A DNA stretch of 64,000 bases from Bugula neritina. Lineage: Eukaryota; Animalia; Bryozoa. Location of the stretch: positions 2,356,001-2,420,000 of the forward strand of contig OZ037772.1 in the NCBI GenBank assembly GCA_964035545.1. The letters run 5' to 3'. Each line of letters opens with the position of its first letter. Position 1 is the stretch's first letter. Shown in pieces: positions 495 through 38,608 of the stretch. The notes beneath the pieces are model-generated. The model ran no database searches. It was not told the DNA's origin and saw only the letters and a list, made by a program, of their open reading frames with translations. The translations under genes and the position numbers were made by a program.

Positions 495-799
495 TGTTAT
501 GTTTTTCAGATTTAGGGTCGATGTGCAACCAAGAGAGTCTATTTATCACTAGAGAAACTTCACCGAGATAAGTCGAGTAGATATCGTTATATTTTAATAC
601 AAGAACACATAATAAAAATCTAATATACAACAGTTATAATGCACACGTCTAATTAATTTACAGCACTGTCCTCAACTGAGCTAGTAGCGCGAAGCTGCTA
701 CTATTACTCATAACAGCCTAGCTAATTGGCTAATACATTGTTCCGGGTCAATACGCAACCTTGCGTATAGTGTTGCTGGTAGCTCCACGAGCCATCACA
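495..799 (-). repeat. 3' LTR of element 1
   Basis: About 3 substitutions versus 7500-7804. Preceded on the minus strand by the purine-rich tract CTGCTGGAGGGGGCAG (800-815). Confidence 0.95.
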
Positions 800-1063: not shown

Positions 1064-1857
1064 TTAACTGCGGGCCGCACGCTTCATGCTCTTAATAGAC
1101 TCCTGTAGATATTTGAGTTCACTGGATGCAGCCTGCACCCGCGGGGCCAGTCTGTACACTTCTTGCTCTAGGTCGTGTGCCCTAGCTTCTACTTCACGTA
1201 GGTTGCGGGCCAGGGGGGACGAACGAGAGGAAGTCTGCTGTCTGTGTCTTTTCCGTTCTGAGGATGGAAGGGGAGGAGGGAGTGTATACGCCTTCGTGTC
1301 TACCCTCTGTAGTACGACACGGGGGAAGGTATGCGGGTGGCGTAGATGACTGTGAGGTGGAGAGTTAGTTGACTGTATAGGTTTATCTGCGGCTCCAGAG
1401 ATGATGGGTCGCGGGGAAGGAAAGCCTTGCTCCAGGCGAGATAGCCGAGCTGCGTCAGTGATGAGGGGTTTGATGGCGTTGAGAAATGCGGGATATGATG
1501 ATTCGTCTACTTCATAGACGTGTCCTTGATAACACTGCATAGTGCGTTGGTGACGCAGTAGGTAATCACGATTGTAACTATTTTCTCCGCAGGGGCAGAA
1601 CGTGGTGATGTAATGCTGCGGCAAGTGTACTTTCAGCCTGCGGTGGGTTGTAAATCAATGCTGGCAGAGGTTGCATTCGCGGTTACCATCACCTCCTTGA
1701 TGAGTCTTAATCTCTCTCTCTGTGGCAGGGGTAATCCAGTTGGAGGTTGCTTCCAACTGGGGTGGCAGTTGTCTGGTTGTAGAAGTTGTTGGGGCCGGCT
1801 CTGGGTCCCACGCCATCTCTAGAGAAGGCATGCCCGGGGAGACGGGCGCGAGTGTGT
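1064..1857 (-). pseudogene. Element 1 third gene, exon 2 (C2H2 + C2HC zinc fingers, basic region, coiled coil); in-frame TGA at 1655-1657
   Basis: ORFs 1655-2137 and 1064-1624 are the same frame: CNLCQH*FTTHRRLKVHLPQH, then CPCGENSYNRDYLLRHQRTMQC. Acceptor ctaac..ttctacttttgtag ends at 1858. Homologous to 15594-16381. Confidence 0.8.
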
Positions 1858-2154
1858 CTACAAAAGTAGAATTATTGTTAGATCGCGGTGGATCTTTACA
1901 ACATAATTCTAGTGACTGTCGACTGTTACTAGCCTGAGAGTCACAGCTTTTGGAATGCACTCGAGGAACCGATGAATCATGTGTGGACTGACCAAGAACA
2001 GTGTCTAGCTCCAGGTCTAACAGACCGTCGGCCATTACAGTGTCCTCATCGTCATTCACATGAAACGTGGTTCCCAGTAATTCTGATTCAATCTGCTGAA
2101 TTAGTTCAGAATTTACTGGCATCGAGCTCGTTTCCATGAATAGGAATACAAGAC

Positions 2155-5100
2155 TTATACTGGCTTACCTGTGAACTCGGTATTAAGGTCCATACTCAAC
2201 GTTCTTGGTAAGATTGGAGCTGGTTGTGATATACGTCTGCCTCTGGCGATGTCAGCATAAGAAAAGGCTGAGCATCGTTTCTGAGGCACAAAGTCGGAAC
2301 TATTTGCTTTACGGGCATTAATTCCTCCCACTATTCCCGCCCTCGCAAAAGTTGATATTTGCGTGGGGTTCACAACTCCAACATTTTATCGTACGGTTTT
2401 CCCCTAGACTTTCATGCGTGCCGCTTCTAATGCAGTCACATACGAAGTCTTTTAAATACGGTGGGGGTTTCCTCGTACGCTGTCCCCGCTCTAGGGGGGG
2501 TGACACGCTCGCCGGTTCGTTGGTAGGGGCCTCTAATGGCGTCTCTACTTCACCGTTAGCGGTCACCTTTTCTTGTTCTCCGGATGGAGCCCCTCCCTCC
2601 GTGGGGATTTGCACTTCCGGAACCGGCTCGGTTTCTGGAAGTGATGGAATTAGACTTGGCGGTGGCGGACACGCGTCTGTTGACAAAAGCTGCCGCTCCT
2701 CTCTCACCAAGTTTTCTTCCCGCGGTATGACTACTTCGTATTCAGGTCCATGCCGCCGTCGCCCGCGCGTTGTTGTCTGCCTCCTGGGCTCCAACAACGG
2801 GGGGGCTTCTCCCACTGCGTCGGGGCTAGCCCAATACGGTTTCAAGCGAGACTCATTCTGGATAGACACCTGTCCTGAGCGCTCAATCTTGTACGTATGG
2901 TTGGGCATAGCCTCGACGATCACGTAGGGTCCTACGAACTTAGGCTTTAGTTTATCAGCCTGTCCGCGGCGCCTACGGTAATTGACCATCCACACCTTAT
3001 CTCCCGTTTGGTAGAGAGGTGGTTCATCGGAATCTTCGTGCCGCACCTTCTACTGCTGTTTGCGCAGTATATCGTGTGCGGCCTTCATCCGTTCCACTAG
3101 TTCACTGGCATACTCGTGAACCGAGTTGTCTTGCTCTGGAACGTGGTAGGTGAGATGGTCAGGGACACGAGTCTCTCTCCCGAGCATCAAGAGGTTTGGG
3201 GTCTCACCAGTACTGGTGTGTGGGGTGCTACGGTATGCACGCATGGATTGCGGCAACACCGTATCCCATTCCTCTTGGCCTCGTCCAAGGAGGAGACTCC
3301 GGAGCGCATCACCTAGCATCCGGTTGTTGCGCTCCACCACCCCGTTACCTTGAGGGTGGTAGGGGGTTGTATGGCTCTGATTTACTCCCCAGAGGTGGCA
3401 AAGGTCGCTCATCAGTTGAGACTGGAATTGAGCGCCTTGATCAGAGTGTATCTGTTCGGGAAGCCCAAAATAACAGAATACATGTTGGTCTAGTGCCCTG
3501 GCCACTGTTGGGGCTGACGCATCTGGGATAGCCAGAGCATCCGCCCACCTAGTAAAGTGGTCGGTTAGTACTAGGATCCAATTATTGCCTCTGGGGGTTA
3601 GGGGCATGGGTCCGACCAGGTCTACAGCGACTACTTGCCAGGACCTACCGGCATATAGCCTCCGCCGTCCTGTTTCACCAGGGGGGCGGCTATGCTTACT
3701 GGCCTGGCAGATCTCACACTGCTTGACTCTGAGTCGGACGTCACGCTCCATTTGTGGCCAATACCACCGGAGTCGTAATTTGGATATCACTCTATTGACC
3801 CCTGCGTGGGCCTGTTTGTGAGTATCCCAAATCAACTCACGGCGGATGGCCGTGGGGCAGACTACCCTCTCCTTCTCCGGGTGTCTGCCGCTGGCGGCTA
3901 GAGAGATGGTTAGTAACCCATCCTGCCCGATCCGCAGCGAGTCCCAACGCTGACAGTATAGCCGGAACTCGGCGCATACCTGTCGTATGCGTTCCTCGCT
4001 GGGTCGTCGCCCTTCCCTTTTGGCCCGATATATGTCTGCCACGACTCCAGGCAGCTCTTCTTGGAGCTTCTTCAGCTCTCGAACATTACCGGCCAGTACA
4101 GGGTTGGCGCGGAGGTTTTGTCCACCCTCCGGGGACTCATCAACTCCCTGCCTGAGTTGACCCTGGTCCCAGTCAAACGGTGCTTCGTGGTGAGCCAGCG
4201 TCTCCAACTCGCATCGCGGGGGACCTCCATCCCTCCTCTCGATGTTGAGACACTGTTTGCAACCTCCGTCAGGTCGGCGACTCAACCCATCCGCATTGCT
4301 GTGTCTCTTGCCCGGTCGATGTTCGATCCGGTATGAGAATTCAGTTAGGAGTTCGAGCCACCAGGCGACCTGACTAGAGGGCTCTGCTTTCTTGCACAAC
4401 CAGATCAGCGAGGCATGATCCGTACGCAGCCGGAACTTCCTGCCATATAAGTATGGTCTGAAGTGCTTCACTGATTTGATTACTGCCAGCAGCTCCTTGC
4501 GGGTAGTGCAGTAATTCCGTTCAGCAGGTGAGAGAGACTTGCTGTAGTAGGCTACTACTACCTCTCGGCCTTCCTGCACTTGAGACAACACAGCGCCAAC
4601 ATTTTGGTCACTAGCGTCCGTGTCGAGGATGTACTCCAGAGTGGGGTCTGGGTAGGCCAAGATTGGCGCCGTTAGTAGGCAACCCTTGAGGCGGTCGAAC
4701 GCTCCTTGTTCGACTGGGGTCCACTGCCACGTCACTCCCTTTGCGGTGAGCCGGTTTAACGGCTGGGCTATGCCCGCAAAGTCCGGTATGTATTGCCTGT
4801 AATACCCTACCAGCCCCAAGAAAGCCCGGAGTCCGGTCAAGTCTTGGGGGGTGACCCAGTCTTCTATCGCCCGTACCTTTTCGGGATCCGTTGCCACGCC
4901 GTTTCGACCGACAACGTGCCCCAGGTACTTGACCTCCGACTGCAATAGAGCGCACTTGGAAGGTTTGAGCTTAAGACCGGCACCTCGGAGTCTCTCGAAA
5001 ACTTCCTGCAGATGACTGACATGTGTCTCGAAGTCTGGAGAGATTACGATGACATCATCGAGGTAGACCAGCAGTGTCTTCCAATGGAGCCCGCTAAGGA

Positions 5101-6651
5101 CTTGTTCCATCAGCCTCTGGAAGGTGGCTGGGGCGGAGGTTAACCCGAAGGGCAGCACCTTCCACTTCCACAGCCCGTCCCGTGTGATAAACGCCGCTTT
5201 CTCCTAGGCGTCGGGACTCAGAGGGACTTGCCAATAGCCACTCAGCAAGTCTAATGTACTGAAGTAATTGCTGCCGGCTAGGGCGTCCAAGGACTCGTCA
5301 ATACGAGGTAGAGGGTAGGCGTCCTGTATGGTTACGTTATTGAGTTTACGGTAATGCACACAGAACCGCCAACTGCCGTCTTTCTTCCGGACCAGTACGA
5401 CCGGTGAGCTCCACGCACTATGGGCGGGCTCTATGAGGCCGCGGTCCAGAAGATCCCGTATTTGTCGGCTAACCTCCTTCTCTTTTTCCGGCCCCAGCCT
5501 GCGTGTGGGTTGCCGGACAGGGACTGTCCCTGCAGTCAGCGGTATTTCGTGCCTGACAACTCCAGTCAGCCCCACGTCATGATCTCCGCTACTGAACACA
5601 TCACCGTAGTCGCGTAGCAACTTCGCCATAGCTTGGCGTTCCTTGTTGCTCGCGCAGCCGCCACAGGCTGTTTCATATAACTCCCGGAGATGTGTTGGGA
5701 CTGCCCCTCGTCCCTGAATAGGGTGTCGAGGGGGTGCCTCCCCCGCGTCACCCAGCGACGGGCCCACGTCCTCTTCCTGGACGGAGTGGAACCGGCCCAG
5801 CATTGACCCAGCTGGGAGCTCAATGGGCTCGGTAAAGGGGTTGAAACACTGCACTAAGACCTCCCCTCGCTCAGTTAGTCGGTTTAAACTACTGGCGAGT
5901 TGGATCCTTTCGTGCGCGCCTTCAACGACCCCGAGCCTGGCTATCCGGTTGCTGTTCACTCGGCAGTGGATAGTAGCTCTGGAGCGTCCGGGTACGGTGC
6001 AGTTTCGAGGATAGCGTCTGCCTCTAGTTGGCTTATGACAAAGGTCTCCTGTACAGCCTGGTCTCGGACACGCCCAGGGAGCTCGATAATACCATAAAGG
6101 GGATACATGACCCGTCTGCCAGGGTGCCATGTTCCCCAGTATGCGGTCGTACTCTATCCCTGTCCCGGCGGGGCAGTGCCTCAAAGACTCTACGACTGAG
6201 AAGGTTGGTAGTACAACCGGAGTCGAGCAGGAAAGTGACGGCGTTGCCGGCCACCTTTCCGGGTAGGAAATAGCTCTCTCCATGTGGTTGTACTTTCACC
6301 CCGCCCCGCATGTGCTGTCCTAGATTGGTAGGACGGCGGGGGTTTCACCCGTGGTTTACGGGGTTTCCGGCGGCGAGGTTGGTGCCGGCGGGGTTTGGGG
6401 CTCTCCACTGGGCCTTCTGGCTCCATTTCAGTGGCGGGCTCCTCTTCCCGAGGTAACCGGTGGAACCGGTTGGCGAGTGGCAGGGAGAAGGTACTCGGCC
6501 GTTGTGCGGGCCTACTAGTCCTGCGTGGTACCTGCCACTCGGGGGGAGTGTTCCGTCGTGTCCGTACGAACAGACGACGGCTTGTCCCACCATACTCCTT
6601 CAGTTGCGGCCCGCGGGGAGGGAGAGTGTCCGCGGGCCGTGACAGTTTAAC
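2155..6651 (-). pseudogene. pol: Element 1 pol (aspartic protease, RT, RNase H, integrase), disrupted
   Basis: LLDSG protease, YLDD RT, DAS RNase H, HHCC + DDE integrase with GPY motif. Stops at 5204 and 3050, a frameshift near 6095, and a ~130-nt deletion at ~6006 relative to element 2. Confidence 0.93.
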
Positions 6652-7466
6652 GCCCCCTGGTATTGGGGTCGTCCTTTCTGTCCCTGGTCTTGACCAGCAC
6701 TACTCCAGCCCTGCCCCACAGGCGTTGGGGGCACCCGCAGGGCCTGACCGGGGCCAGCACCGGCCAGAATGGTTACCAGTTGTCCCAGCATCTCTACCAT
6801 ACGGTCCACTTCGGCTTCCAGCGGGAGGGCTTCGGGACCTGTCGTAGCCATGGCAGCGCTGACTCCAACTACTGGTGGGTTCCGTTGCGCTCGATGCATT
6901 TGGGTAGCCAACAGGTAAGCTTCTCCAGCCTTCAGAGCATCCTCTATTCTGGTTATCCCTTTAGCTCGCAGTTGATGGTGTAGGCCCAGGTCGTTTAGTG
7001 ACTGGACAAAGGCGTCATAGGTGTAACGCTCTTGGTGTTGTGCTGGCAGATCGCTATACGCAATCTGCGCCAGCTTCTTCACCGTCGCGGCATGTTCTTG
7101 CAGCGAGGTCCGCGGGGTGCGGCACAATCTCTCTAGCTTGGTCCTAGCGTCTATTGCGGAGATGCCAAAACGGGCCCGCAGCGCAGCCAGTATCCCGTTT
7201 ACGTCCGTTCCCACTCCGTACGGCTTGGCTTGTTCCGTCACCGCTCTCCGCAATTGGATAAGGGCCACTCTATGCGGCCATTGAGCAATCTCCATTACTT
7301 CTCTAAATTCTTGTATAAACTGTTCGACATCCTCTGACCCAGTAAACGTGGGAGCTTTCAAGCAATATCTATAAGCTTCTTCTCCCTCACGATTCACAGG
7401 ATTAACATCATTTCTACGCTCACCTTCTACTGGGGGTGGTTGCATTCTAGCATTTTCAGTTTCCAT
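6600..7466 (-). CDS. gag: Element 1 Gag (288 aa; no intact zinc knuckle)
   Basis: ORF directly after the PBS. APTFTG..DVEQFI capsid-like motif. Homologous to element 2 Gag. Confidence 0.88.
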   Translation of the reverse strand: METENARMQPPPVEGERRNDVNPVNREGEEAYRYCLKAPTFTGSEDVEQFIQEFREVMEIAQWPHRVALIQLRRAVTEQAKPYGVGTDVNGILAALRARFGISAIDARTKLERLCRTPRTSLQEHAATVKKLAQIAYSDLPAQHQERYTYDAFVQSLNDLGLHHQLRAKGITRIEDALKAGEAYLLATQMHRAQRNPPVVGVSAAMATTGPEALPLEAEVDRMVEMLGQLVTILAGAGPGQALRVPPTPVGQGWSSAGQDQGQKGRPQYQGALNCHGPRTLSLPAGRN

Positions 7467-7499: not shown

Positions 7500-7804
7500 T
7501 GTTATGTTTTTCAGATTTAGGGTCGATGTGCAACCAAGAGAGTCTATTTATCACTAGAGAAACTTCACCGAGATAAGTCGAGTAGATATCGTTGTATTTT
7601 AATACAAGAACACATAATAAAAATCTAATATACAACAGTAATAATGCACACGTCTAATTAATTTACAGCACTGTCCTCAACTGAGCTAGTAGCGCGAAGC
7701 TGCTACTATTACTCATAACAGCCTAGCTAATTGGCTAATACATTGTTCCGGGTCAATACGCAACCTTGCGTATAGTGTTGCTGGTAGCTCCACGAGCCAC
7801 CACA
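7500..7804 (-). repeat. 5' LTR of element 1
   Basis: Direct repeat of 495-799, adjacent to the PBS. Confidence 0.95.
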
Positions 7805-7914
7805 ATACCTTACAGTTGCTATAAATGTAAGACTAGTAAATTGGATGCAAATAGGCACGGTAATACTATTTAATTTATGCTATTTTTGAAATTTGTAGTA
7901 AATATTCGGCATGT

Positions 7915-7934
7915 ATTATATATATATATATATG

Positions 7935-8016
<82 letters not shown>

Positions 8017-8573
8017 TATTATATATATATTATACATTATATATATATTATATTATATATATTATACAAGTATAATAATATTATATATAATATATATATA
8101 TTATAATAATATATATATATTATAATAATATATTATATATTATTATATTATATATTATATTATATATATATTATATATATAATATCATATATAATATATT
8201 ATTATATTATATATTATATTATATATGATATATATATATTATAATAATATATTATACATTAATATATTATATATGATATATATCTAATAATATCATATAT
8301 AATATATATATATACACATATATATATAATATAATATTATATTATATATTATATTATATATATACTATATATATATTATATATATATAATAATGTCATAT
8401 ATAATATATAAAATATATTATTATATTATATATTATATTATATATATAATAATATCATATATAATATATTATTATATTATATATTAAATTATATACATTA
8501 TACATATATAATGATATTATATATAATGTATATATATACATATAATAATATTATATATTATATATATATATAA

Positions 8574-8670
<97 letters not shown>
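7915..8670. repeat. (TA)n / TATTA low-complexity spacer of the foldback element
   Basis: Almost pure A/T. A second copy lies at ~16988-17750. Confidence 0.9.
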
Positions 8671-8671
<1 letters not shown>

Positions 8672-9469
8672 GCCAAATATTTACTACAAAATTCAAAAAT
8701 AGCATAAATTAAGTAGTATTACCGTGCCTATTTGCATCCAATTAACTAGTCTTACATTTATAGCAACTGTAACGTATTTTGTGTATAATGGTTATTGCAA
8801 GCATTATTCAATTCATATTCACATTGTAATCACAGCGAAGCTTTAACTTTATAGCTTTGTATTTATGTGCATGATTGAGTTTTAATTTTTCTTTTAACTT
8901 TATGTGCATTAAAAATATGTTTAAAAATTTTACCAATAAACAAAATTAAAAAAAATGTACACATGAAATAGAAAAAAAATAAAATAACAAAAGTGGCAAA
9001 ATTTTTCCTTTATAACTTATATAAACTCGCGGTACCAATCTCGGCATAATGGCGCCCATATGATTCCGTAAGATTTGCTAATGGCAACACTCTTAAATAT
9101 ACCACACTGAGCCTTGCTTCTCAAAAACGGATTTTAAAGTCATGAAAACCATACAATTGGATATTGCTTAAGTACAATGAGAGGCGTAAGCGCACCGTCT
9201 AGATAATCTTGTCGCATTGTAAAATAATTTATGCTATATGCTTGCTGTACCCACTAGGATTAGTGATGACTTTGCTTTATACTTGTGACTTATAAGTTGT
9301 AGTTTTTAACTCAATTTGACGAAACTTAGTATCCTTATTTTGCTTGAAAAGGATGCTACGCTTTAAAGATTTAATTCTCTTGCATAAGCAAGTTGTAAGT
9401 AATAGTAATACTAATACTCTAATTGAGTAAGTTGTAGTGTTAATATAATTTTTTATTCATTCTTAATAT

Positions 9470-9774
9470 TGTGGTGGTTCGTGGAACTACCAGCAGCACA
9501 ACATGTAGGGTCGCGTAATTGACCCGGAACAATGGATAGCCAATTAGCGTAGTTGATAGTTAGCAGCAATTGTAGTTTCCCGCTGCTAACTCAGTCGAAG
9601 CTAGAGTGTGAAATAGATTAGATGTATAACTTGTTTGAAGATAATGTATCGTTTTTATAATGTATAATTGTGTGTAAAATATACTCGTTCACTCGACTTA
9701 TCCTGGTGCAGTTCTATAGCAAATAAATAGACTCTCTGGATAGCACATCAACCCTAAATCTGAAAATCTTAACA
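9470..9774 (+). repeat. 5' LTR of element 2
   Basis: Direct repeat of 16669-16975, followed by a tRNA-Leu-type PBS. Confidence 0.95.
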
Positions 9775-9805
9775 GTGGTGGCAGCAGTGGGATAGTGCAT
9801 CCAAG

Positions 9806-10759
9806 ATGGAGACTGAAAATGCTGGAACTCAACCACCGGCAATCGAAGGTGAGCGTAGAGACAATGCTGTAGAGACAATGCCTGTTAACCATGTAGTAGA
9901 AGAGCGAAGGGTTCCGCGAGAATTAGCTGAGGACCGCTACAGGTTATAGGCGCCCACCTTCACGGGTGAAGAGGAGGTGGAACAATTTATCCAAGAGTTC
10001 AGCGACGTAATGGACGTCGCTCAGTGGCTCCCTAGGGTGGCCTTGTTGAAGCTTAGAATGGCATTGATGGACAAAGCCAAGCCCTATGGGCTGGGCGTAG
10101 ACATTGATAATATCTTTGCTTCTCTGCGGGCCCGCTTTGGCCTCTCTGCTACAGATACCAGGGCCCGATTGCAGAGGTTGCGGCGTGATCCCCGCACCCC
10201 GCTGCGGGAGCATGCCGCCGCAGTCATGAAGCTGGCACAGATCGCGTACAGCGACTTGCCCCCAGTCAACCGCGAGATGTACACCCTCGACGCTTTCATA
10301 GCATCTGTCGACGATCTGGGTCTCCACCACCAGTTTCTAGCTAGGGGAGTCACCACCGTTGAAGATGCTCTGACTGAGGGGGAAGCTTACCTCCTAGCTA
10401 ATCAAATGCATAAAAGTCGCGGAAGCTCCCGCCAAGTGGAGATAGACCGCGCAGACACGGCCGCGGGACAAGGGGAGGAAACCCCCGCCGCGGCTGCCGT
10501 GTCCCAGTTGGCGACGGCATCAAAAGTCACTCAACTGACATACATGCTAGCCAAGCTGATAGCAACACTGACACCACAAAACCCAGTGAGTACCGCCCCT
10601 GAGCCCATGCGGCCATCGGCGCCGCCACAGGGAGAAACAGTCAGTTTTTGCTGGGAGTGCGGAAATCAAGGACATTTCCGCCGATATTGTCCCTTCCTAA
10701 ATCAGGGGTTAAACTACCGCGGCCCGCAGATGTTCCCACCTTCCGCAGGCCGACGATGA
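9806..10759 (+). pseudogene. gag: Element 2 gag with premature TAG at 9947-9949; C-terminal CCHC zinc knuckle
   Basis: METENAGTQPP start matches element 1. RL*APTFTG versus LKAPTFTG. Knuckle CWECGNQGHFRRYC. Confidence 0.9.
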
Positions 10760-13700
10760 AACCTCCAGGGAAGAAGAAACGCAGGTCACCCAGACGGGTA
10801 CCGCGTACTGGCAACCAACAGTGGCAACAGCCACGACGGACCAGCAAGGGGCTTCGCCCCGCGGCTGCCTTTTCTATGCCCCTTCACAACAGATTCACAG
10901 GGCTACAAGTCCAAGAATCTGGATGGGAGCACACAAAGGTAGCTGAGAATCTAGCCTCGGCACCCCCGAGGCCTACCTACCACCGCCCCAAGAGACCTCC
11001 TTCGCGACCCAAAGCGAGGGAGGTACTCCCTGCGAGAGTAAGGCCTGAAGGGAGAGTTCAGGTGCAGCCCCATGGGAACAGCTATTTCTTGCCCGGTAAA
11101 CTGGAAGGCAAAGCTGTTACTTTTCTCATTGATTCGGGCTGTACCACAAACCTCTTAAGCCGCTAACTCTTCGACACCCTCAGCGCTAGGGTCAGGGGCG
11201 AGATGGAAGCATACGAAGGGGAATACGGCACCCTAGCTGACGGGTCGTGCCTTCCCTTCTATGGTATAATTGAGCTGACGGGACGAGTCCGTGATCAAAC
11301 GATCCAAGAGACGTTCATCGTCAGTCAGCTCAAGGAGGATGCTATCCTCGGGATGCCGTTCCTTAAACAGCACGGATGTCACATAGATTTTAGCAGATCT
11401 GCAATGATGATGTCCGGGCGGGAACTCGCCTGCGTCGACAAGTTCGGCCGCCCTTTAGTGGGAGGTGTGCAAGTAGTACGCAACCGTACCATACCAGGCC
11501 GCTCCCGGGCTACCATTCACTGCAGGGTGAATAGTAGCCGGATCTCTGGACTCGGGGTGGTTGAAGGCGCGCACGAAAAAATCCAACTTGCCAGCAGTCT
11601 GAATCAGCTGACTGAGCAAGGGGAGATCTTAGTGCGGTGCGTCAACCCCTTTACCGAGCCTATCAAGCTCCCGGCTGGGTCGATGCTGGGCCGTTTTCAC
11701 TCTGTTCAGGAGGGAGACGTAGGCCCGTCGCTGGGTGATGCGACAGAGGCACTCCCTCGACACCCGATTCAGGGACGAGGGGCAGTCCCAACACATCTCC
11801 GGGAGTTATATGAAACAGCCAGTGGCGGCTGCGCGAGTAACAGGGAACGCCAAGCTATGGCTAAGTTACTACGCGACTACGGTGATGTGTTCAGCAGCGG
11901 AGAGCATGACGTGGGACTGACTGGAATTGTCAGACACGAAATACCGCTGACTGCAGGGACAGTCCCTGTCCGGCAGCCCACACGCAGGTTGGGGTCGGAG
12001 AAAGAGAAGGAGGTTAGCCGACAAGTACGGGATCTTCTGGACCGGGGACTGATAGAGCCCGCCCATAGTGCGTGGAGCTCGCCAGTCGTACTGGTCCGGA
12101 AGAAAGACGGCAGTTGGCGGTTCTGTGTGGACTACCGCAAACTCAATAGCGTAACCATACAGGACGCCTACCCTCTACCTCGTATTGACGAGTCATTGGA
12201 CGCCCTAGCCGGCAGCAAGTACTTCAGTACGTTAGACTTGCTAAGCGGCTATTGGCAAGTTCCTCTGAGTCCCGACGCCCAGGAGAAAGCGGCGTTTATC
12301 ACACGGGACGGTTTGTGGAAGTGGAAGGTACTGCCCTTCGGGTTAACCTCCGCCCCAGCCACCTTCCAGAGGCTGATGGAACAAGTCCTTAGCGGACTCC
12401 ATTGGAAGACACTGCTAGTCTACCTCGATGATGTCATCGTAATCTCTCCAGACTTCGAGACACATGTCAGTCGTCTGCAGGAGGTTTTCGAGAGACTCCG
12501 AGGCGCCGGTCTTAAGCTCAAACCTTCCAAGTGCGCTCTATTGCAGCCGGAGGTCAAGTACCTGGGGCACGTTGTCGGTCGAAACGGCGTGGCAACGGAT
12601 CCCGAAAAGGTACGGGCAGTAGAAGACTGGGTCACCCCCCAAGACTTGACCGGACTCCGGGCTTTCTTGGGGCTGGTAGGGTATTACAGGCAATACATAC
12701 CAGACTTTGCGGGCATAGCCCAGCCGTTGAACCGGCTCACCGCAAAGGGAGTGACGTGGCAGTGGACTCCAGTCGAACAAGAAGCGTTCGACCGCCTCAA
12801 GGGCTGCCTACTAACGGCGCCCATCTTGGCCTACCCAGACCCCACTCTGGAGTACATCCTTGACACGGATGCCAGTGACCAGAATGTTGGCGCTGTGCTG
12901 TCACAAGTGCAGGAAGGCCGAGAGGTAGTAGTAGCCTACTACAGCAAGTCTCTCTCACCCGCTGAACGAAATTACTGCACTACCCGCAAGGAGCTGCTGG
13001 CAGTAATCAAGTCAGTGAAGCACTTCAGACCATACCTATATGGCAGGAAGTTCCGGCTGCGTACGGATCATGCCTCGCTGATCTGGTTGTGCAGGAGAGC
13101 AGAGCCCTCTAGTCAGGTCGCCCGGTGGCTCGAAATCCTAGCTGAATTCTCGTACCGGATCGAACACCGACCGGGCAAGAGACACAGCAATGCGGATGGG
13201 TTGAGTCGCCGACCTGACGGAGGTTGCAAACAGTGTCTCAACATCGAGAGGAGGGATGGAGGTCCCCCACGATGCGAGTTGGAGACGCTGGCTCATCACG
13301 GAGCACCGTTTGACTGGGATCAAGGTCAACTCAGGCAAAGAGTTGATGAGTCCCCGGAGGATGTACAAAACCTCCGCGCCAACCCTGTACTGGCCGGTAA
13401 TGTTCGAGAGCTGAAGAAGCTCCAAGAAGAGCTGCCTGGAGTCGTGGCAGACATATACCGGGCCAAAAGGGAAGGGCGACGACCCAGCGAGGAACGCATA
13501 CGACAGGGATGCGCCGAGTTCCGGCTATACTGTCAGCGTTGGGACTCGCTGCGGATCGGGCAGGATGGGTTGCTAACCGTCTCTCTAGCTGCCAGCGGCA
13601 GACACCCGGAAAGGAAGAGGGTAGTTTGCCCCACAGCCATCCGCCGTGAGTTGATTTGGGATACTCACAAGCAGGCCCACGCAGGGGTCAAGCGAGTGAT

Positions 13701-15279
13701 GTCCAAATTACGACTTCGGTGGTATTGGCCACAAATGGAGCGTGATGTCCGGCTCAGAGTCAAACAGTGTGAGATCTGCCAGGCCAGTAAGCATAGCCGC
13801 CCCCCTGGTGAAGCAGGACGGCGGAGGCTATACGCTGGTAGGCCCTGGCAAGTAGTCGCTGTAGACCTGGTCGGACCCATGCCCCTGACCCCCAGAGGCA
13901 ATAATTGGATCCTAGTACTAACCGACCACTTTACTAGGTGGGCAGATGCTCTGGCTATCCCAGATGCATCAGCCCCAACAGTGGCCAGGGCACTAGACCA
14001 ACATGTATTCTGTTATTTTGGGCTTCCCGAACAGATACACTCTGATCAAGGCGCTCAATTCCAGTCTCAACTGATGAGCGACCTTTGCCGCCTCTGGGGA
14101 GTAAATCAGAGCAGGACCACCCCCTACCACCCTCAAGGTAATGGGGTGGTGGAGCGCAACAACCGGATGCTGGGTGATGCGCTCCGGAGTCTCCTCCTTG
14201 GACGAGGTCAAGAGGAATGGGATACGGTGTTGCCGCAAGTCATGCGTGCATACCGTAGCACCCCACACACCAGTACTGGTGAGACCCCAAACCTCTTGAT
14301 GCTCGGGAGAGAGACTCGTGTCCCCGACCATCTCACCTATCACGTTCCAGAGCAAGATAACTCAGTCCATGAGTATGCCAGTGAACTAGTGGAACGGATG
14401 AAGGCCGCACACGATATACTGCGCCAACAGCAGTGGAAGGTGCGGCACGAAGATTCCGATGAACCACCTCTCTATCAAAGGGGAGATAAGGTGTGGATGG
14501 TCAATTACCGTAGGCGCCGCGGACAGGCTGATAAGCTGAAGCCTAAGTTCGTAGGCCCCTACGTGGTCGTCGAGGCTATGCCCAATCATACGTACAAGAT
14601 TGAGCGCTCAGGACAGGTGTCTATCCAGAATGAGTCTCGCTTGAAACCGTATTGGGCTAGCCCCGGCGGAGTGGGAGAAGCCCCCCCCGTTGTTAGAGCC
14701 CAGGAGGCAGACAACAACGCGCGGGCGACGGCGGCATGGACCTGAATACGAAGTGGTCATACCGCGGGAAGAAAACTTGGTGAGAGAGGAGCGGCAGCTT
14801 TTGTCAACAGAAGCGTGTCCGCCACCGCCAAGTCTAATTCCATCACTTCCAGAAACCGAGCCGGTTCCGGAAGTGCAAACCCCCACGGAGGGAGGGGCTC
14901 CATCCGGAGAACAAGAAGAGGTGACCGCTGACGGTGAAGTAGAGACGCCATTAGAGGCCCCTACTAACGAACCGGCAAGCGTGTCACCCCCCCTAGAAAG
15001 GGGACAGCGTACGAGGCAACCCCCGCATACTTGAAGGACTTCGTATGTGACTGCGTTAAAAGCGGCACACATGAAAGTCTAGGGGAAAACCGTACGAGAA
15101 AAGAATCGAGCAAATGTGGGAGTTGTCAACACCACGGAAATATCAACTTTTGTATCGGCGGAAATAGAAACAAAATTCATCCGCCGGGTGCACAAAGTCT
15201 TAATCACGCACCCCAACCACGTTGCACGATCTTTTCATACGCTGATGCAGTCAGGAGTAGACGTGTTTCTAAGCAGTAG
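10708..15279 (+). pseudogene. pol: Element 2 pol (PR-RT-RH-IN), in the -1 frame to gag; stop at 11164 and frameshifts near 14690 and 15030
   Basis: LIDSG protease, LPFGL/YLDD RT, RNase H, integrase HHCC/DDE/GPY. 1180-aa open stretch at 11203-14745. Confidence 0.95.
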
Positions 15280-15593
15280 TTCAAACCATTTCACATATTC
15301 AGTATGTCTTACGACAACAGATCGTGGGGTGAGTTAACTATATCTTAATACGAAACTAGATTGCATCGCTCAGCTCTGACTCACTGAGTCAATCGAGCTG
15401 GAGATAGGTTAGTGAAATACCGTAGTAAGAACTCAGTTTGACTTAGAGATTTTTATAATCTCATTGCAATACGTGTTCTATCTGACTATTCACTACCATT
15501 AATCTCTACGAGGTAACTGAATTAGGAGTTGCCAAGCTGTTCAAGCTGACAACACAGCAGTGTACTGTATTAACACTGTTGAAACTTTTTCAG

Positions 15594-16381
15594 ATTACAC
15601 TCGACCCGCTACAACCAGGGTACGGGATAGAACACTTCCCGCTCCGTATCCGGAGGAGTATGCTAGTGGTGACCGGCCTGAGCCACTACGCCGCCGTTGG
15701 CGGTGGGTGTCTCCACAAACAGAGGAAGAAAAAGAAACGGCCTGGGGGTCCAGAGGACGGACGAGATGCCAGATCTGTGGTGAAGATTGCGCCTCTCACC
15801 GTTCCCTTAAACTACACGTCAATGCTCATCTCCTACTGACATTCTGCCCCTGCGGGTACAATGATGTGTATCCCTACCCCGTCACCAGACACAGAGCGGT
15901 GGGCTGTTTCCCTGGAGAAAACTATGTGGTCGACGCTAAGCTGTACCCGGAGTTCCTCGCACTTATACGACCTCTGGTGAAGAAGGCCATGCTATTAGCC
16001 GTTCTGTCCTCGGGGTTCCAACGCGTGTTAGACAACGCCCGCCAGCAATCCCCGTTGGTGTCTGACCGTCCTCAAATTACATACACCCCCGAGGAAACTA
16101 CATATCCAGAAGAAGGAGAGATCTCCCCCACACCAGCGAAGAGACGAACCAGGTCCCCCAGTCCACCCTTGCGCCGCAGACGGACACCGTCCCCAGACCC
16201 AGTACGCCTGGCTACAGTAGAAGAACGCCTCCTACGATTACAAGAAGAGTTCACCCAGCTGGCACCAGATCTACTTAACACTACAACAGGACTCTTCCAG
16301 CTAAAGGGATCCGTATGCCGTATGAAACGGAAACTGCGTACATGCCAAGCCAAGCACCGGCGTGCCCAACAAGGACTCTAG
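15594..16381 (+). CDS. Element 2 third gene, exon 2 (zinc-finger/coiled-coil protein; predicted exon 1 = 9806-9848; 276 aa)
   Basis: CQIC-x12-HVNAH and CPC-x12-H-x4-C motifs, RS/basic tract, heptad C-terminus. No usable ATG. Acceptor tttttcag at 15593 is in phase with the gag donor AAG|GTGAGC. Confidence 0.8.
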
Positions 16382-16668
16382 TTAGGCTACCCAGAATACT
16401 CCGCAACTCCACATTTTGTGAGGAACCAAAATCGTGCAAATGCTTAACTGCTAGACAGGTTACTCCTTGTCTAATACCACAGCTAGCTAGTATTCCTCGT
16501 CTATCTACAGCTGGCCAATTGTATGCAACGGATCGTTATAATGACTCTGCCTATTATTATGTCTCTTCTTGTATATTATGTATCATTTTGTCCACTGATG
16601 TATGCAATTACTATTGAACGTTTTTTTATATATATATCAGAAAGATGGCTTTCTGCTGGTGGGGGCGG

Positions 16669-16975
16669 TGTGGTGGTTCGTGGAACTACCAGCAGCACAG
16701 CGTGTAGGGTCGCGTACTTGACCCGGAACAATGGATAGCCAATTAGCGTAGTTGATAGTTAGCAGCAATTGTAGTTTCCCGCTGCTAACTCAGTCGAAGC
16801 TAGAGTGTGAAATAGATTAGATGTGTAACTTGTTTGGAAATAATGTATCGTGTTTTTATAATGTATAGTTGTGTATAAAATATACTCGTTCACTCGACTT
16901 ATCCTGGTGCAGTTCTATAGTAGATAAATAGACTCTCTGGATAGCACATCAACCCTAAATCTGAAAATCTTAACA
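16669..16975 (+). repeat. 3' LTR of element 2
   Basis: Direct repeat of 9470-9774. Confidence 0.95.
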
Positions 16976-16990
16976 ATATTCGGCATGTAT

Positions 16991-17023
<33 letters not shown>

Positions 17024-17714
17024 TATAATAATATATTATATATTTTTATATTATATATTGTTATATTATATATATATATATTATATAAGTATATTAATAT
17101 TATATATAATATATATATTATAATAATATATTATATAATATAATAATATAATATATTATTATATTATATATTATATTATATATATATTATATATATATAA
17201 TATCATATAATATATATTATTATATTATATTATTTATATTATATATATTATAATAATATATTATATATTAATATATATTATATTATATTATATATAATAT
17301 ATTATACAAGTATAATAATATTATATATAATATATATATATTATAATAATATATATATTATAATAATATATTATATATTATTATATTATATATTATATTA
17401 TATATATTATATATATAATATCATATATAATATATTATTATATTATAATATTATATTATATATTATATTATATATATTATATATATATAATAATATCATA
17501 TATAATATATAAAATATATTAATAAATTATATATTATATATATAATAATATCATATATAATATATTATTATATTATATATTAAATTATATACATTATATA
17601 TATATAATGATATTATATATAATATATATATATACATATAATAATATTATATATTATATATATATAATAATATTATATATTCATATATATATATATATAT
17701 ATAATAATATATAT

Positions 17715-17752
<38 letters not shown>

Positions 17753-18552
17753 GCCAAATATTTACTACAAAATTCAAAAATAGCATAAATTAAGTAGTAT
17801 TACCGTGCCTATTTGCATCCAATTAACTAGTCTTACATTTATAGCAACTGTAGCGTATTTTGTGTATAATGGTTATTGCAAGCATTATTCAATTCATATT
17901 CACATTGTGATCACAGCGAAGCTTTAACTTTATAGCTTTGTATTTATTTGCATGATTGAGTTTTAATTTTTCTTTTAATTTTATGTGCATTAAAAATGTG
18001 TTTGAAAACTTTACCAATAAACAAAATTAAAAAAATGTACACATAAAATAGAAAAAAATAAAATAACAAAAGTGGCAAAATTTTTCCTTTATAACTTATA
18101 TAAACTCGCGGTACCAATCTCGGCATAATGGCGCCCATATGATTCCGTAAGATTTGCTAATGGCAACACTCTTAATATACCACACTGGCCTCGCTTCTCA
18201 AAAACGGATTTTAAAGTCATGGAAACCATACAATTGGATATTGCTTAAGTACAATGAGAGGCGTAAGCGCACCGTCTAGATAATCTTGTCGCATTGTAAA
18301 ATAAATTATGCTATATGCTTGCTGTACCCACTAGGATTAGTGATGACTTTGCTTTATACTTGTGACTTATAAGTTGTAGTTTTTAACTCAATTTGACGAA
18401 ACTTATTATCCTTATTTTGCTTGAAAAGGATGCTACGCTTTAAAGATTTAATTCTCTTGCATAAGCAAGTTGTAAGTAATAGTAATAGTAATACTAATAC
18501 TCTAATTGAGTAAGTTGTAGTGTTAATATAATTTTTTATTCATTATCAATAT
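16976..18552 (+). repeat. Direct duplication of 7902-9469 (AT spacer, right arm of the hAT foldback element and flank)
   Basis: Starts atattcggcatgtatta as at 7902. Colinear through the TIR end (18187) to ttcatt..aatat, with scattered substitutions. Confidence 0.9.
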
Positions 18553-29471: not shown

Positions 29472-32400
29472 AAATTCAAGTGCCACATATGTGGAAAAAG
29501 TTATAAACACAGGCAAAGTTTGAGCAGGCACCAAAGTATCCACAAAAAAAGATGTGATCAATGTAAACGGTTGTATGCACCGTGGAAAACAAATCACCGA
29601 TGTCATAACACGGTAATTTATCTACTGAGTGATACGATACGATATGAATATGATCATACTACATATACTATCACAACAAATTCAAAGCTAACTAATCAAT
29701 GGTAATCTTGGTAAATTTTAGAATACAAACTCAAACGGAGCAGAGAGAAGGTCAAACAAAAAGCCTCAAACCACATTCAGTGATGATATTGAACGCTATC
29801 AGTACAAAGGCATTTACGAAGAGGAAACAAATGCTCTATTGAGAAAAAACTGGTCAGCTATAAGAACGTACAACAGAAAAGGGAAATATTGTAGTGTCTA
29901 CAATCGATTGATAAAAGACAATGACATTATTTCAACTTTAAACAATAAAGAAGTGAAATTAATATTTCATGAACAAACATTGAAATTCAAATGCAATGCT
30001 TCAATTGGTTTTATCCTTTTGAATCAAAATGAGGAAAAGTTGAGATACTTTCATGCTAGCATGGGTGTTGATAAACTTTTTGCCTCGCCAAAGCTAATAG
30101 AGAATTTACGAGATTTCAATCAACTTGTGAAAGAAATGACAGAAAAAGATTTCATAGAGAAAGCAACTCAAAACAGGCCAAACACTTCGTGGAGTGTTCA
30201 CAAAATAACAAATATTACATTGTATGTATTTCCTATACCAGATCACAATATCGGATGCCCTATATCTCCATCTGAGAGAACAAAACAAAACAAAGCAATT
30301 ATAACAGCTAGCACTGATACAACTGGAAGACTGTATGAAGACAACTTATGTCTATTTAGAGCTCTAGCTTACTCAAAGGGGCAGCAGAGTACTTTAACAC
30401 AGTCTACGAAACATTATTATGAAATGTACTTGAATGGTATGAACAAACTGAATCAAGATTTTACAGGAGTGCCTTTATCAGACCTCAGATTTGCCGAGCG
30501 AATACTGAACTGTTCTATTAATGTGTACACCTTGGAATACAATACAGGGAAAGAAGCTAATGCAAAGCTTATGTACAGAGCCACTACCAATTACAAACAC
30601 AAACTAAACTTACATCTAGAGGAATCACATTTCAGTTGGATAAAAAACATCTCTCTTTACACAAAGTCATACAAATGTACATTTTGTAACAAGCTAATGA
30701 AATCAGTCAGAGCGTTGAATAGTCATAACACAGTATGTACAGCTGGTGAAACAAACCTTGTGTATCCCTACGGGGTGTATACTCCGTCTCGATCTATTTT
30801 CGAAAAGCTTGAAGATGTTCACATCACAGTTGATGAAAATAGACGACATTATCCGTACTTTGCTGTGTTTGATTGCGAAACGATGATGTCTTCGATTGAT
30901 TTACCTGCAAACACAAATACAATACACTATGAAAACAAACACAAGTTGGCTTGTATAAGTTTATGCTCAAACGTATCTGGCTATACACAACCAGTGAATT
31001 TCATGAATTCTGGAAATGAATACGAGCTGGTTGTGAAAATGATGGATTTCCTTACAAAGCTGTCTGAAGTATGCTACCAGAGATTGCTTGTTAGATACAA
31101 TGATGTGTTTAAAAAACTACGTGAAAAAGCTGACGAGTGTATCAAGAAAGAAATTGAAGCTAGTTGTAATAACAAAGCAGTGAACAATGTCAAAAAAAAG
31201 TTTGAATCACTAGAAAGTCAACTCCACTGTTATTTGAAAGACTTGATGGTCTTGTCTTTCAACGGCGCTGTCTATGACATTCCATTGATTCGACAACATA
31301 TGCTACGGTATCTATTAGAACAAAACCAAAAAGTTTTGTTTACAGCTAAAAAAGGAAACAAATACATGTGTATTCAAACGGAAAAATTAAGATTTCTAGA
31401 CGTGCTCAATTTCCTTGCTCCAGGGTTTTCGTACTCTGATTATCTAAAAGCTATGGGAGTTGAAGGGGAAAAATTCTTCTGGCCTTATGACATATTTACA
31501 TCTATGGAAGTGCTAGACAGAACAGAGTTCCCCGCTCATGAAGAGTTTTACAGTAAACTGAAAGGTAAAAACATATCCGTTCAGGAGTATGAAAAATGCA
31601 AAGAAATATGGGTACAGAAAGGAATGAAAACATTAAAAGACTTACTAGAGTACTACAATAACGAAGATGTCAGACACTTTATACCAGCATTAGAAAAGCA
31701 AAATGAATTTTACAAATCATGCAATCTTGATTTCAAGTCAGCTATATCTATACCAGGACTAGCGATTCAATATTTATTTCAATTAAAAGACCCAGAAGCG
31801 CCAATCTTTCTGTTTGGTGATAAGTTTAAAGACATTCACCAACTTATCAAATCAAACATTAGAGGTGGTTTATCAATTGTGTTCTCAAGGTATCAAGAAG
31901 CTGGCGCAACAAAGATTAAACCTGAATACTTTGGTGATCAAGCCAAAACTACACAAACATGTGTAGGGTATGATGCGACAAGTTTATATTTGAGTTGCCT
32001 AGTGAAAGATATGCCCACAGGAGCCTTTGTAAGAAGGCGGAGAGAAAATAGCTTTAGAATAGAAAAAAGCTACTATTCGGGTGAAAAAGCTACAGTATGG
32101 CTAAAATACATGTCAAAGCTGCTCGGAGTCAAAATTCAACACAAGTTTAATAGCACCGAACGTCGAATAGGTGGACGAAACATACCAGTCGATGGATACG
32201 CTCTGGCGAGTGATGGTAGTGAACTAGTGTTCAACTACTCAGGATGCTGGTTTCACGGACATCTATGCGACTATTGTCCAAATGGAAAGTTTAATAACAA
32301 AGAAAAAGATTTACAAAATCAAATAGACACATACAATACGCTGAAATATTTCCAAGATTTGGGTTACAGAGTCTACCATACTTGGGAGTGTGAATTTGAT

Positions 32401-33872
32401 AATTTGAAAAAGGAAAACAGTGATGTCAGTGAGTTCTGCTCAAATCTGGACTTCATTGTTGATTCAAGATACGTAATATCAGAAAGCAAAATACTAGAAG
32501 AAATCAAAAATGGTTCAATGTTTGGAATGGCTGAAGTTGATATAGAAACACCTGAAGACTTGAAAACAATATTTGCTGAATATCAACCTATACAAAAAAA
32601 TGTACTGATATCAAGGGATGACATAGGCCCACACATGAAACAATTTGCAGAACGAAATGGTTTACTAAAAAAGCCATCACGTACTTTAATCAGTAGCTAT
32701 TTCGGGAACAAAATCCTTTTGTCCACCCCGCTACTGCAATGGTACCTACAACACGGCTTAGTGGTTACAAAAGTATATCAAGTAATTCAATACAAGCCAT
32801 CAAAATGCTTCAAGATGTTTGGTGAAAAGGTAATGGAGGCTAGGAGAGCTGGTGACCTCGATTCCTCAAAGAAGATTATATCGGATTCATGCAAACTAAT
32901 AGGTATTTAGTAAATATTGACATGTTTAAACATAGCACTTATTCAATGGTTATTAATATGCAAATCACTTAAGCATCTAGCAAGAGCGATAACTTTTGCA
33001 TTGAATAATTACTCAATATATTTCAAAATAATCCACTTCGCTATATTTCAGGAAACTCTGCGTATGGCCGAACACTAGTCAACCTAGAGAGTCACACTGA
33101 TATCATATATTGTGATGCTGAAGAGACAAACATCTCAAGACTGGTAAACAATCCTAGATTTAACAGCTTACAAGAAATTGATTCTCAACTAGTTGAAATT
33201 GAATCACGAAAAGCTAAGATTAGACTCAATGTACCAGTACAAATTGGCTTTCAAGTATTAGAGTATGCAAAGCTAGCCATGTTGAAATTCTATTACGATT
33301 TCTTGTTAAAGTTTCTATCTCTAGACAGTTTTGCTTTGATTCAAATGGACACTGACTCAATGTATTTAGCTCTAAGTGAAAAAACTTTGTACCTAGCGGT
33401 TAAAAGTGATATGAGAAATGAATTTGAACAAGAACACACTAGTTGGATGTGTAGAGAATATTGCGATGAACACAAGTCACAATATTTTCAATGTATGTTT
33501 AACGGGCAAACCTGGAATCCATTAGACTGTTGTAAAGCTAGTGCCAAGTTCCACAAAAGATCTTTGGGGTTGTTTCACTGCGAAAATGTCTCCCGAGGTG
33601 TTGTAGCGCTTTGCTCCAAATGTTACTATTGTTTCGGGGAAGAACCTAAATACAGTTCAAAAGGTGTCAGTAAATTGCACAACAACTATACCGAAAAAGA
33701 TTACTTCGATGTATTGATAAATCAGAAAATTGCTTACGGTACGAACAAGGGTTTTCGAGTAAAAGGTGAAGAAATATTCACGTACGTTCAAAATCGAAAA
33801 GCTTTAAATTATTTTTACGGAAAGAGAATTGTGTCACAAGATCACGTGACAACCAAACCTACTTTACTGTAA
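29472..33872 (+). CDS. pPolB: Protein-primed family B DNA polymerase, spliced (exons ~29472-29612, 29722-32902, 33052-33872; first exon/ATG uncertain)
   Basis: ExoI FDCET, ExoII FNGAVYD, ExoIII YNNED, motif A YDATSLY, motif B KLIG|NSAYG restored by splicing, motif C DTDS. N-terminal C2H2 finger exon, OTU-like C..H region and a Vsr-like insert. Confidence 0.93.
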
Positions 33873-33953
33873 AAAAACTGTGTTCAGTTAGCGCGTTCAG
33901 TTAATTGGTATTTCACTGTTCGGTTGATAGGTCGCATCAATCAATATTCTACG

Positions 33954-34352
33954 ATGGAAAATTTATACCTATTACAGAAAAACGCTTATAATTATATATG
34001 GTACAAGCTTTTGAAAATGAGTAGACAACATTACGTTAACTATTGTATAACGCAAACCGTTTTGGACATGTACAATAAACATCAAAATTGGAGTGAGGAA
34101 GAAATAAATGAATTGGTCGAACTAGCCGAGGATATGTACGAGACTAACGGTTACGTTCAGTTTTGTAAAGTGGCAAAAGATTTGACTGATCCAAATATCT
34201 CAGCTATTCGCTTAGAAACAATATTTTTCTTGTGCGTGCAAATTTGCAAAATGTATATCGAGGCTGGAGAACACTTCGCAGTGAAATATTTTATTCAACA
34301 GATCCAATGGAACTTGGGAATAGCTCTCGAGAAACAAAACAATGTACAATAG
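33954..34352 (+). CDS. Polinton small all-helical protein, candidate viral Bcl-2-like
   Basis: FCKVAKDLTDPNISAIRLETIFFLCVQIC resembles the BH1 pattern, and ELVELAEDM is BH3-like. Judged by eye only. Confidence 0.5.
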   Translation: MENLYLLQKNAYNYIWYKLLKMSRQHYVNYCITQTVLDMYNKHQNWSEEEINELVELAEDMYETNGYVQFCKVAKDLTDPNISAIRLETIFFLCVQICKMYIEAGEHFAVKYFIQQIQWNLGIALEKQNNVQ

Positions 34353-34378
34353 TTTATTTTGTATATAATTGTGTATAT

Positions 34379-34457
34379 TTGCCTAAACTTGCCTAAACAT
34401 GCCTAAACATGCCTAAACATGCCTGAACTTGCCTAAACATGCCTGAACTTGCCTAAA
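34379..34457. repeat. 10-bp tandem repeat (tgcctaaaca) x~8
   Basis: Directly visible between the Bcl-2-like ORF and the ATPase. Confidence 0.9.
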
Positions 34458-34549
34458 TCTATTTATACTTTTTTATGCCTATTAATATTTTTGTACATTA
34501 CTTGATACAATTATTTGGGAATAAACTCTCGGAATATACAGTTAACATC

Positions 34550-35200: not shown

Positions 35201-35214
35201 AGCTAACATAAATC

Positions 35215-35565
35215 ATGACCGCTAGAATTAAAAAACACGCCAAGACTCTAAGTTATTTAGCTGAATGTGACAAACACAACTGTAAAGCAATCATCAACGC
35301 AGCGGGTAGTGAACTGTTGAACTGTTTCTCAGATATTTGCTACAACGTATTAAAAGGCAAGGTGTCATTGTCACCTACTGAAGAAAACAACTTACGTAAA
35401 TACAAAAATATTTTAAGAAAGATTGCTGATAAAAAGAGTACACTGAAAACTAAAAAAACACTGGTACAGAAAGGAGGGTTTCTCTTGGCTCTTTTAGGAC
35501 CACTAATAGGAAGTGTTCTAGCACTACTAGCGAAAGGAATATTCAGCGGTTTTAGAAAAAGATGA
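35215..35565 (+). CDS. Conserved Polinton virion protein with QKGG|FL protease site and hydrophobic C-terminal helix
   Basis: ICYNVLKGKVSLS...LVQKGGFLLALLGPLIGSVL, typical of Polinton small core proteins. Confidence 0.75.
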   Translation: MTARIKKHAKTLSYLAECDKHNCKAIINAAGSELLNCFSDICYNVLKGKVSLSPTEENNLRKYKNILRKIADKKSTLKTKKTLVQKGGFLLALLGPLIGSVLALLAKGIFSGFRKR

Positions 35566-37365: not shown

Positions 37366-37398
37366 ATAATAAACTTATATGTTGTCACTCTTACAAAG

Positions 37399-38597: not shown

Positions 38598-38608
38598 AAT
38601 ACTATACT

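Follow-up and report, generated by a model that had tools for sequence, protein, structure and literature searches.

We describe a gene that two Ty3/Gypsy long terminal repeat (LTR) retrotransposons of the bryozoan Bugula neritina carry downstream of pol, where retroviruses have env, in the form of a third open reading frame (ORF3) that very probably is expressed by splicing the start of gag onto a separate second exon. Both elements lie in a stretch of 64,000 nucleotides (contig OZ037772.1 of assembly GCA_964035545.1, positions 2,356,001 to 2,420,000 of the forward strand), hereafter the window, to which all coordinates refer, and they stand in divergent orientation, element A at 9470-16975 (+) and element B at 7804-495 (-). 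As judged from sequence, ORF3 appears to encode a conserved zinc-finger/coiled-coil protein, which we tentatively read as a regulator of the element's own promoters.

Two Gypsy elements with a probably spliced third gene

The layout of the two elements is as follows.

Element A, plus strand
9470..9774: 5' LTR (TG...CA), target duplication ATAT, differing from the 3' LTR by 10 mismatches and one 2-base indel
9776..9793: primer-binding site, located by sequence, which we take to be of the tRNA-Leu type
9806..9848: exon 1, the first 14 gag codons plus 1 base (43 bases, ATG at 9806), with donor GTGAGC at 9849
9806..10759: gag with a CCHC knuckle, frame broken by a stop at 9947
10708..14745: pol (protease region, reverse transcriptase, RNase H, integrase), frame broken by a stop at 11164
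15594..16381: exon 2 (ORF3), intact, encoding a C2H2 finger, a C2HC finger, a helical extension, a Pro/Ser/Arg linker and a 57-residue helix
16669..16975: 3' LTR, with a purine-rich tract just upstream

Element B, minus strand
7500..7804: 5' LTR, target duplication GTAT, 3 mismatches against its own 3' LTR
7424..7466: exon 1, 14 gag codons plus 1 base (43 bases, ATG at 7466), with donor GTGAGC at 7423
6600..7466: gag, 288 amino acids, without the CCHC knuckle of A although its frame is open
2318..6599: pol, interrupted by stops at 5206 and 3052 and carrying a protease-region deletion
1064..1857: exon 2 (ORF3), frame broken by an in-frame TGA at 1657-1655
495..799: 3' LTR

The sequence identifies A and B as LTR retrotransposons of the Ty3/Gypsy group (Metaviridae). 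Each has 305-base LTRs with TG...CA ends, a 4-base target duplication, a primer-binding site and a polypurine tract, and a search of Pfam placed reverse transcriptase, RNase H and integrase in Gypsy order in the pol of both. The closest solved relative of pol is Ty3 Pol (E 4e-128), ahead of the enzymes of caulimovirus, foamy virus and murine leukaemia virus (MLV). A G TTA AAC heptamer followed by a GC-rich stretch lies at the gag-pol overlap (10708-10714 on the plus strand in A, about 6652-6646 on the minus strand in B) and is probably a -1 frameshift signal. Both copies are defective, A in gag and pol, and B in pol, the protease region and ORF3. Since its gag and pol are broken, A could supply the ORF3 product only in trans, and B could not do even that.

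In A, the acceptor TTTTTCAG ends at 15593, and the joined frame runs through an Asp junction codon to the stop at 16379-16381, giving a product of 276 amino acids. In B, the acceptor TTTTGTAG ends at 1858 on the minus strand, the junction codon is again Asp, and the frame counts 278 codons. A first-pass annotation of this DNA had proposed these donors, acceptors, phases and Asp codons, and all were found where it had placed them. Of its two product lengths, 276 amino acids holds for A and 278 does not hold for B, where the in-frame TGA interrupts the first finger. The shared 14-codon donor, to which it had also drawn attention, is present in both elements, although the two are not independent, the region being homologous (76% identity in its bin).

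Support beyond chance comes from the conserved family to which the exon-2 protein belongs, from the donor-shaped E-G-E of Gag N-termini, and from a protein, P0026, in which the two parts are naturally joined. This database homolog starts MAEEGTELPIPRNE, followed by Asp and then by exon 2, while a Gag recovered in a separate search (P0182) has the identical 14 first residues followed by G-E, the translation of the donor. P0026 was the sole protein with a Gag-like start among 113 ORF3 proteins compared with 122 Gags, 11 further members of which share its first 6-11 residues. A Gag leader followed by Asp and exon 2 implies that the two parts do occur joined in nature, whether in an RNA or in a copy made by reverse transcription. 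Although leaders differ, [EG]-G-[ED] is kept at residue 10, 14 or 15 in 44 of the 54 Gag N-termini that could be scored (those reaching the N-terminus, from 120 Gags listed). In 42 unspliced ORF3 homologs, moreover, the residues flanking the junction all permit a YAG acceptor where readable, as seen at the level of protein and not of DNA. It is therefore very probable that ORF3 is made by splicing the first 14 gag codons onto exon 2.

The ORF3 protein and its relatives

The exon-2 proteins of A and B are homologous (30% identity, E 3e-30), and the shared motifs that the first-pass annotation had listed for them, the fingers included, are present in both. Close homologs, all unnamed, numbered 72 among 1472 candidates with the A query and 32 among 496 with the B query. 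An alignment of 61 proteins shows next to no variation, in either family, in the ligands of the C2H2 and C2HC fingers, in a Trp that precedes them and in a VD motif that follows (for example, C84 in 61/61 and H78 in 60/61). Finger 1 of family B has the classical C2H2 spacing C-x2-C-x3-F-x5-L-x2-H-x3-H, with the classical Phe in 23/26 and Leu in 24/26 of its proteins, and family A is without the Phe. A basic RS tract had been described as common to the proteins, which did not hold: a basic cluster before the coiled coil was found in 15 of the 16 family-B proteins scored and in 6 of 66 from family A, where 54 of 63 proteins have a basic C-terminal tail instead.

Differences seen in X2, a run of aligned contigs whose kind is not established, were synonymous in 5/6 cases in ORF3, as against 19/23 in pol and 4/5 in gag; this is a small sample picked by support, with 40 of 265 differences listed, of which the 34 falling in the three frames were classed. 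By hand calculation, assuming that between a quarter and a third of changes are silent, the probability of reaching 5/6 by chance is about 0.005-0.02. The conserved family, the near-fixed ligands, the mostly synonymous differences and a confident structural model (below) thus support the view that ORF3 is a real gene conserved under selection. Could it instead be a captured fragment of a host zinc-finger gene, a functionless passenger whose splice signals are coincidental? The stop in copy B speaks for this, as does the lack of an RNA junction in X2 and in a second run, X1 (see below). However, the ligands are conserved across families that are 30% identical, the differences are mostly synonymous, the joined form exists in P0026, and B is also broken in pol, as in decayed copies. 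We regard the passenger reading as very improbable and already largely refuted.

A structural model of the A protein (mean predicted local distance difference test (pLDDT) 81.3, predicted template modelling score (pTM) 0.58) shows a compact unit at about residues 25-151 with two finger-like units, a disordered linker and a single helix at 202-258 (57 residues). The weak rows of a Foldseek search against the PDB were mostly complexes of C2H2 fingers with DNA, the top sequence-profile match in the PDB was to SALL3 fingers (E 0.0097), and matches in the ESM Atlas, all under 0.9, were mostly C2H2 clusters. Pfam gave nothing above its cut-off for ORF3, 9 of the 61 members matching zf-C2H2_4 at E 0.025 or worse, and the ORF3 proteins contain no tandem C2H2 fingers with the usual linker. 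The first-pass annotation had not recognised the protein family and, with no significant Pfam or fold match, neither could we; the data support a zinc-finger/coiled-coil protein that, from its sequence, appears to belong to no catalogued family. The heptad pattern and the long helix suggest that the protein may dimerise, and a homodimer prediction scored 0.03. In the same way, the two predicted fingers and the basic tracts make a nucleic-acid-binding regulator plausible.

In errantiviruses, the third ORF after pol is env, typically expressed from a spliced message. That ORF3 is not Env, as had been claimed from the outset, was borne out: no transmembrane segment was found in it, and no signal peptide of the kind expected of a glycoprotein. 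The best 19-residue hydropathy is 1.64 in A ORF3, which is borderline, and 0.59-0.88 in three relatives, and in the model the most hydrophobic stretch of A corresponds to short helices of the globular domain.

The domain extends well beyond the two elements. A profile search of 1.84 billion representatives returned 289 proteins at E <= 0.001, 48 of them at 1e-30. When 20 of the more distant relatives were looked up, 4 clusters bore organism names, all of them bryozoan gene models. Direct matches to the zinc-core profile came from Watersipora subatra (XP_067940964.1, E 3.5e-65, and XP_067944745.1, E 4.4e-16), and Bugula neritina KAF6040922.1 and KAF6040923.1 are cluster members of profile matches. 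In contrast to ORF3, these are uncharacterised host gene models of 416-596 amino acids, one of which has the domain twice. The zinc-core domain likewise occurs twice in some distant relatives (P0238, P0275 and P0318), and two of the Bugula cluster members carry consecutive locus tags. Double domains and consecutive tags point to domestication or tandem host genes as possibilities. At the DNA level, ORF3 queries of contigs from viruses, metagenomes and prokaryotes recovered no relatives. With integrase as the query, viral contigs again gave nothing, and metagenomes gave 2 loci that both lacked an ORF3 match.

A candidate second entry exon and the proposed function of ORF3

Between pol and ORF3, each element holds a second potential first exon, which the first-pass annotation, in describing the two elements, had passed over together with the stop in B and an acidic extension of family B.

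15304..15328, plus strand: internal mini-exon of A, ATG, 8 codons plus 1 base, donor GTGAGT at 15329, matching exon 1 in phase
15329..15593, plus strand: short intron of A, 265 bases, closed in three frames, ending in the shared acceptor
2169..2193, minus strand: internal mini-exon of B, ATG, 8 codons plus 1 base, donor GTAAGC at 2168, at a position that aligns with the A mini-exon
1858..2137, minus strand: acidic 93-codon in-frame extension of B (ATG at 2137) within the short intron, candidate long form
15259..15266, plus strand, also 9620 and 16819 in the LTRs: AGAYGTRT motif, candidate shared cis element, chosen post hoc

In both mini-exons the ATG has the context AGTATG, and both fit the exon-2 acceptor. 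The ATG and the phase-1 donor have stayed in alignment, with unrelated codons separating them, in a region where A and B share about 46% identity. From this pattern, the mini-exon is probably the first exon of an internally started RNA. An alternative role as an in-frame middle exon was rejected, since by hand count the two nearest AG sites give exons of 26 and 68 bases, both of which shift the frame. On the sense strand, each element has exactly 3 copies of the AGAYGTRT motif, of which two lie in the LTRs, one in each, and the third about 45 bases upstream of the mini-exon; the whole window, both strands counted, has 12 matches.

In B, the acidic extension runs in frame into ORF3; 11 full-length proteins, selected because they contain it, share about 70% identity over its length, as much as over the core. 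An LLD...PYK-like motif of the extension recurs in frame in 5 proteins (E 4e-21 to 0.08) whose families share only 42-57% identity over the core, and its retention in frame at this distance favours coding. Of 29 distant members, 25 have a net acidic stretch ahead of the core.

Fingers, basic tracts and a coiled coil in a soluble protein, with an acidic N-terminus in some forms, suggest a transcription factor. Production by a route that bypasses the LTR would be necessary for a protein that activates the LTR and superfluous for one that exports RNA, which favours an activator. Our best reading, by analogy with the Tas protein of foamy viruses and held at a little under even, is that the ORF3 product is a predicted nuclear DNA-binding regulator that would switch on the promoters of the element. 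Under this scheme, splicing of exon 1 from the gag start onto ORF3 would yield the zinc-finger/coiled-coil protein, and transcription from a promoter lying after pol and ahead of ORF3 would give an RNA with the mini-exon as its first exon, so that some protein could be made without LTR activity. The two fingers, paired via the coiled coil, would recognise a sequence found both in the LTR and close to the mini-exon. The long form with an acidic N-terminus (in family B and more distant families) may be a strong activator, and the spliced short form, which skips the acidic part, may tune or damp it. The pol genes of A and B are 93-98% identical from about 11720 to 14970 of A (B 2331-6007), whereas the bins of LTR, gag and ORF3 are only 38-76% identical, which indicates that pol was exchanged between families and that ORF3 stayed with its own LTR. 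That ORF3 travels with LTR and gag fits, weakly, a cognate pair of LTR and regulator, since physical linkage alone explains the pattern.

The same gene could instead encode an exporter in the manner of Rev or of CERV, the accessory protein of the Caenorhabditis elegans element Cer1, made from fully spliced RNA and binding the structured gag-pol intron in the nucleus to free the unspliced genome. The strong donor in gag means that unspliced RNA must be protected, and CERV, itself required for export, comes from spliced RNA and combines a Gag-sharing N-terminus with a leucine zipper and a cysteine loop (PMC10309623). Moreover, only the spliced-out part of the RNA is structured: 18/37 and 16/36 windows fold better than shuffled sequences at z <= -2, against 0/12 windows below z -1.3 downstream of the acceptor. 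This better-than-shuffle folding runs almost throughout A 10470-15600 and the matching part of B, and not through exon 2 or the 3' end. The short intron was rejected as a special RNA element, its z values of -2.65 and -4.79 being matched across gag-pol. Against export, no discrete response element stands out in the folding scan, neither a second promoter nor an acidic extension is needed by an exporter, and the finger type weakly resembles DNA-binding C2H2 rather than the C4-type loop described for CERV. Export is the main rival, though an unlikely one.

The host relatives bear on another proposal, in which the protein would counteract silencing, act on chromatin or, as a self-repressor, keep copy number down, binding element DNA or a host silencing protein without direct activation. 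The architecture fits a DNA-binding adaptor, family A is without the acidic extension, and bryozoan gene models contain related domains, duplicated in two cases (P0238 and P0318). However, no enzyme or chromatin-reader domain was found by Pfam or fold searches, and an early LTR-independent exon suits an activator better; we consider the proposal quite unlikely.

Both elements lie in copies of one AT-rich repeat beside TA microsatellites (7901-9469 and 16975-18552; also 1-494 and 7805-8781), A being flanked by two 1.6-kb copies that are 91% identical. An insertion preference is possible, and the ORF3 product might steer integration, entering the particle or integration complex via its Gag-derived N-terminus and targeting, for example, the AT-rich repeat. 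The 14 residues in common with Gag would fit, as would the position of A and B and the best weak profile matches, to SALL3/4 fingers, one SALL4 structure title naming AT-rich DNA. Yet there are two insertions only, and the mini-exon form would be without the Gag leader, which seems dispensable, making this reading improbable.

Several observations weigh against the activator that we prefer. The joined form is represented by one protein, P0026, on one contig and at the protein level. In the RNA run X1, 20 contigs aligned, neither splice site was covered and no junction was seen; in X2, no such junction appeared among the 15 of 52 joints listed, and the donor showed no loose end of this kind. 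X1 covers just a small share and X2 is made up of contigs, and a lack of junctions in either proves nothing. The second finger (C-x-C...H-x4/5-C) is atypical, and fingers of the C-x-C...H...C sort also bind RNA or protein. Foldseek matches were all insignificant (PDB E >= 1.9; viral E >= 0.15). The mini-exon is present in 2 copies, and its internal promoter is a candidate. Substitutions in the B extension look neutral, with a mean BLOSUM62 score of mismatches of -0.52, where the code alone expects -0.51 to -0.62 and the core gives 0.0. Family A, with its intron closed in three frames, is without the long form and so without the proposed activation part. Finally, the AGAYGTRT motif was picked after the fact.

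A fuller version of the activator reading, rather unlikely in its entirety, is that an invertebrate Gypsy lineage independently evolved a foamy-like circuit, in which an internal promoter makes the activator before the LTR is on, a shared motif is bound, and alternative splicing into a single acceptor balances a long form that activates against a short one that damps, through a widespread undescribed domain that bryozoans may have domesticated.

Setting and comparison with known systems

Elsewhere in the window, a gene set at 29722-40458 (+), fragmented by stops, appears to be Polinton/Maverick-like. It also has a long polymerase-like ORF, and its other members are, all on the plus strand:

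34457-35200: packaging-ATPase-like ORF
36130-37365: integrase with chromodomain
38579-39919: major capsid N-terminus, weak match
39892-40458: adenovirus-type protease, weak match

Long ORFs at 61109-63997 were set aside as an artefact of a 17-base tandem repeat in 168 copies.

Accessory ORFs of LTR elements are already known, and it is the ORF3 family and the layout with two entry exons that are new to the literature we searched. No description of either was found there, repeat databases of the Repbase type and supplements lying outside that search, and PMC8556966 makes no mention of 'orf' or 'zinc'. The first-pass annotation had called the elements 'complex' retrotransposons, a kind already known from CERV of the C. 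elegans Ty3/Gypsy element Cer1. CERV is a protein of 517 amino acids encoded by 5 exons, with H, M and G-protein-like domains and, in the account of PMC10309623, no homologs outside nematodes; that account also finds it needed for RNA export. Like ORF3, CERV is an accessory protein of a Gypsy-type element made from spliced RNA, with an N-terminus shared with Gag, a leucine zipper and a cysteine-rich possible finger. Unlike CERV, as that source describes it, ORF3 has 2 exons, the second downstream of pol, C2H2 and C2HC fingers and a C-terminal coiled coil. The H, M and G-like domains of CERV were not found in ORF3, whose model consists of fingers and a long helix with no G-like domain.

In foamy viruses, Tas is encoded by a 3'-end gene expressed mainly from an internal promoter, and it binds DNA there and in the LTR; alternative splicing sets this activator against the damper Bet (PMC13220597). 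The mini-exon and the long and short forms of ORF3 suggest the same logic. Foamy viruses, unlike the ORF3 elements, are vertebrate retroviruses with env, and no sequence or fold link between Tas and ORF3 was found by Foldseek against PDB and viral structures or by a profile search of the PDB. Tor elements of Oikopleura reach their third gene via a donor near the gag start (Tor3a) or an internal promoter in or after pol (Tor3b/4b), one route per element, and this gene encodes a membrane glycoprotein (PMC4402516). Here, unlike Tor, the two routes appear to coexist in a single element, and their product would be a soluble zinc-finger protein. Bdelloid rotifer LTR elements have ORF3s after pol, typically expressed from spliced messages and encoding fusion proteins, GDSL esterases, DEDDy exonucleases and coiled-coil or transmembrane proteins (PMC5408684, in which 'zinc finger' occurs 0 times).

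In the literature searched, CERV is the only functionally proven regulatory accessory protein of an animal Gypsy element that we found. Retrotransposons are generally taken to rely on host factors for their transcription. If our reading is true, a zinc-finger gene that is conserved, spliced and served by two entry exons would represent a second, unrelated form of retrovirus-like self-regulation. With a small protein, a confident model and an obvious target in the 305-base LTR, the idea of a retrotransposon-encoded transcription factor is directly testable, and its uncatalogued domain links mobile elements to unannotated bryozoan host genes.

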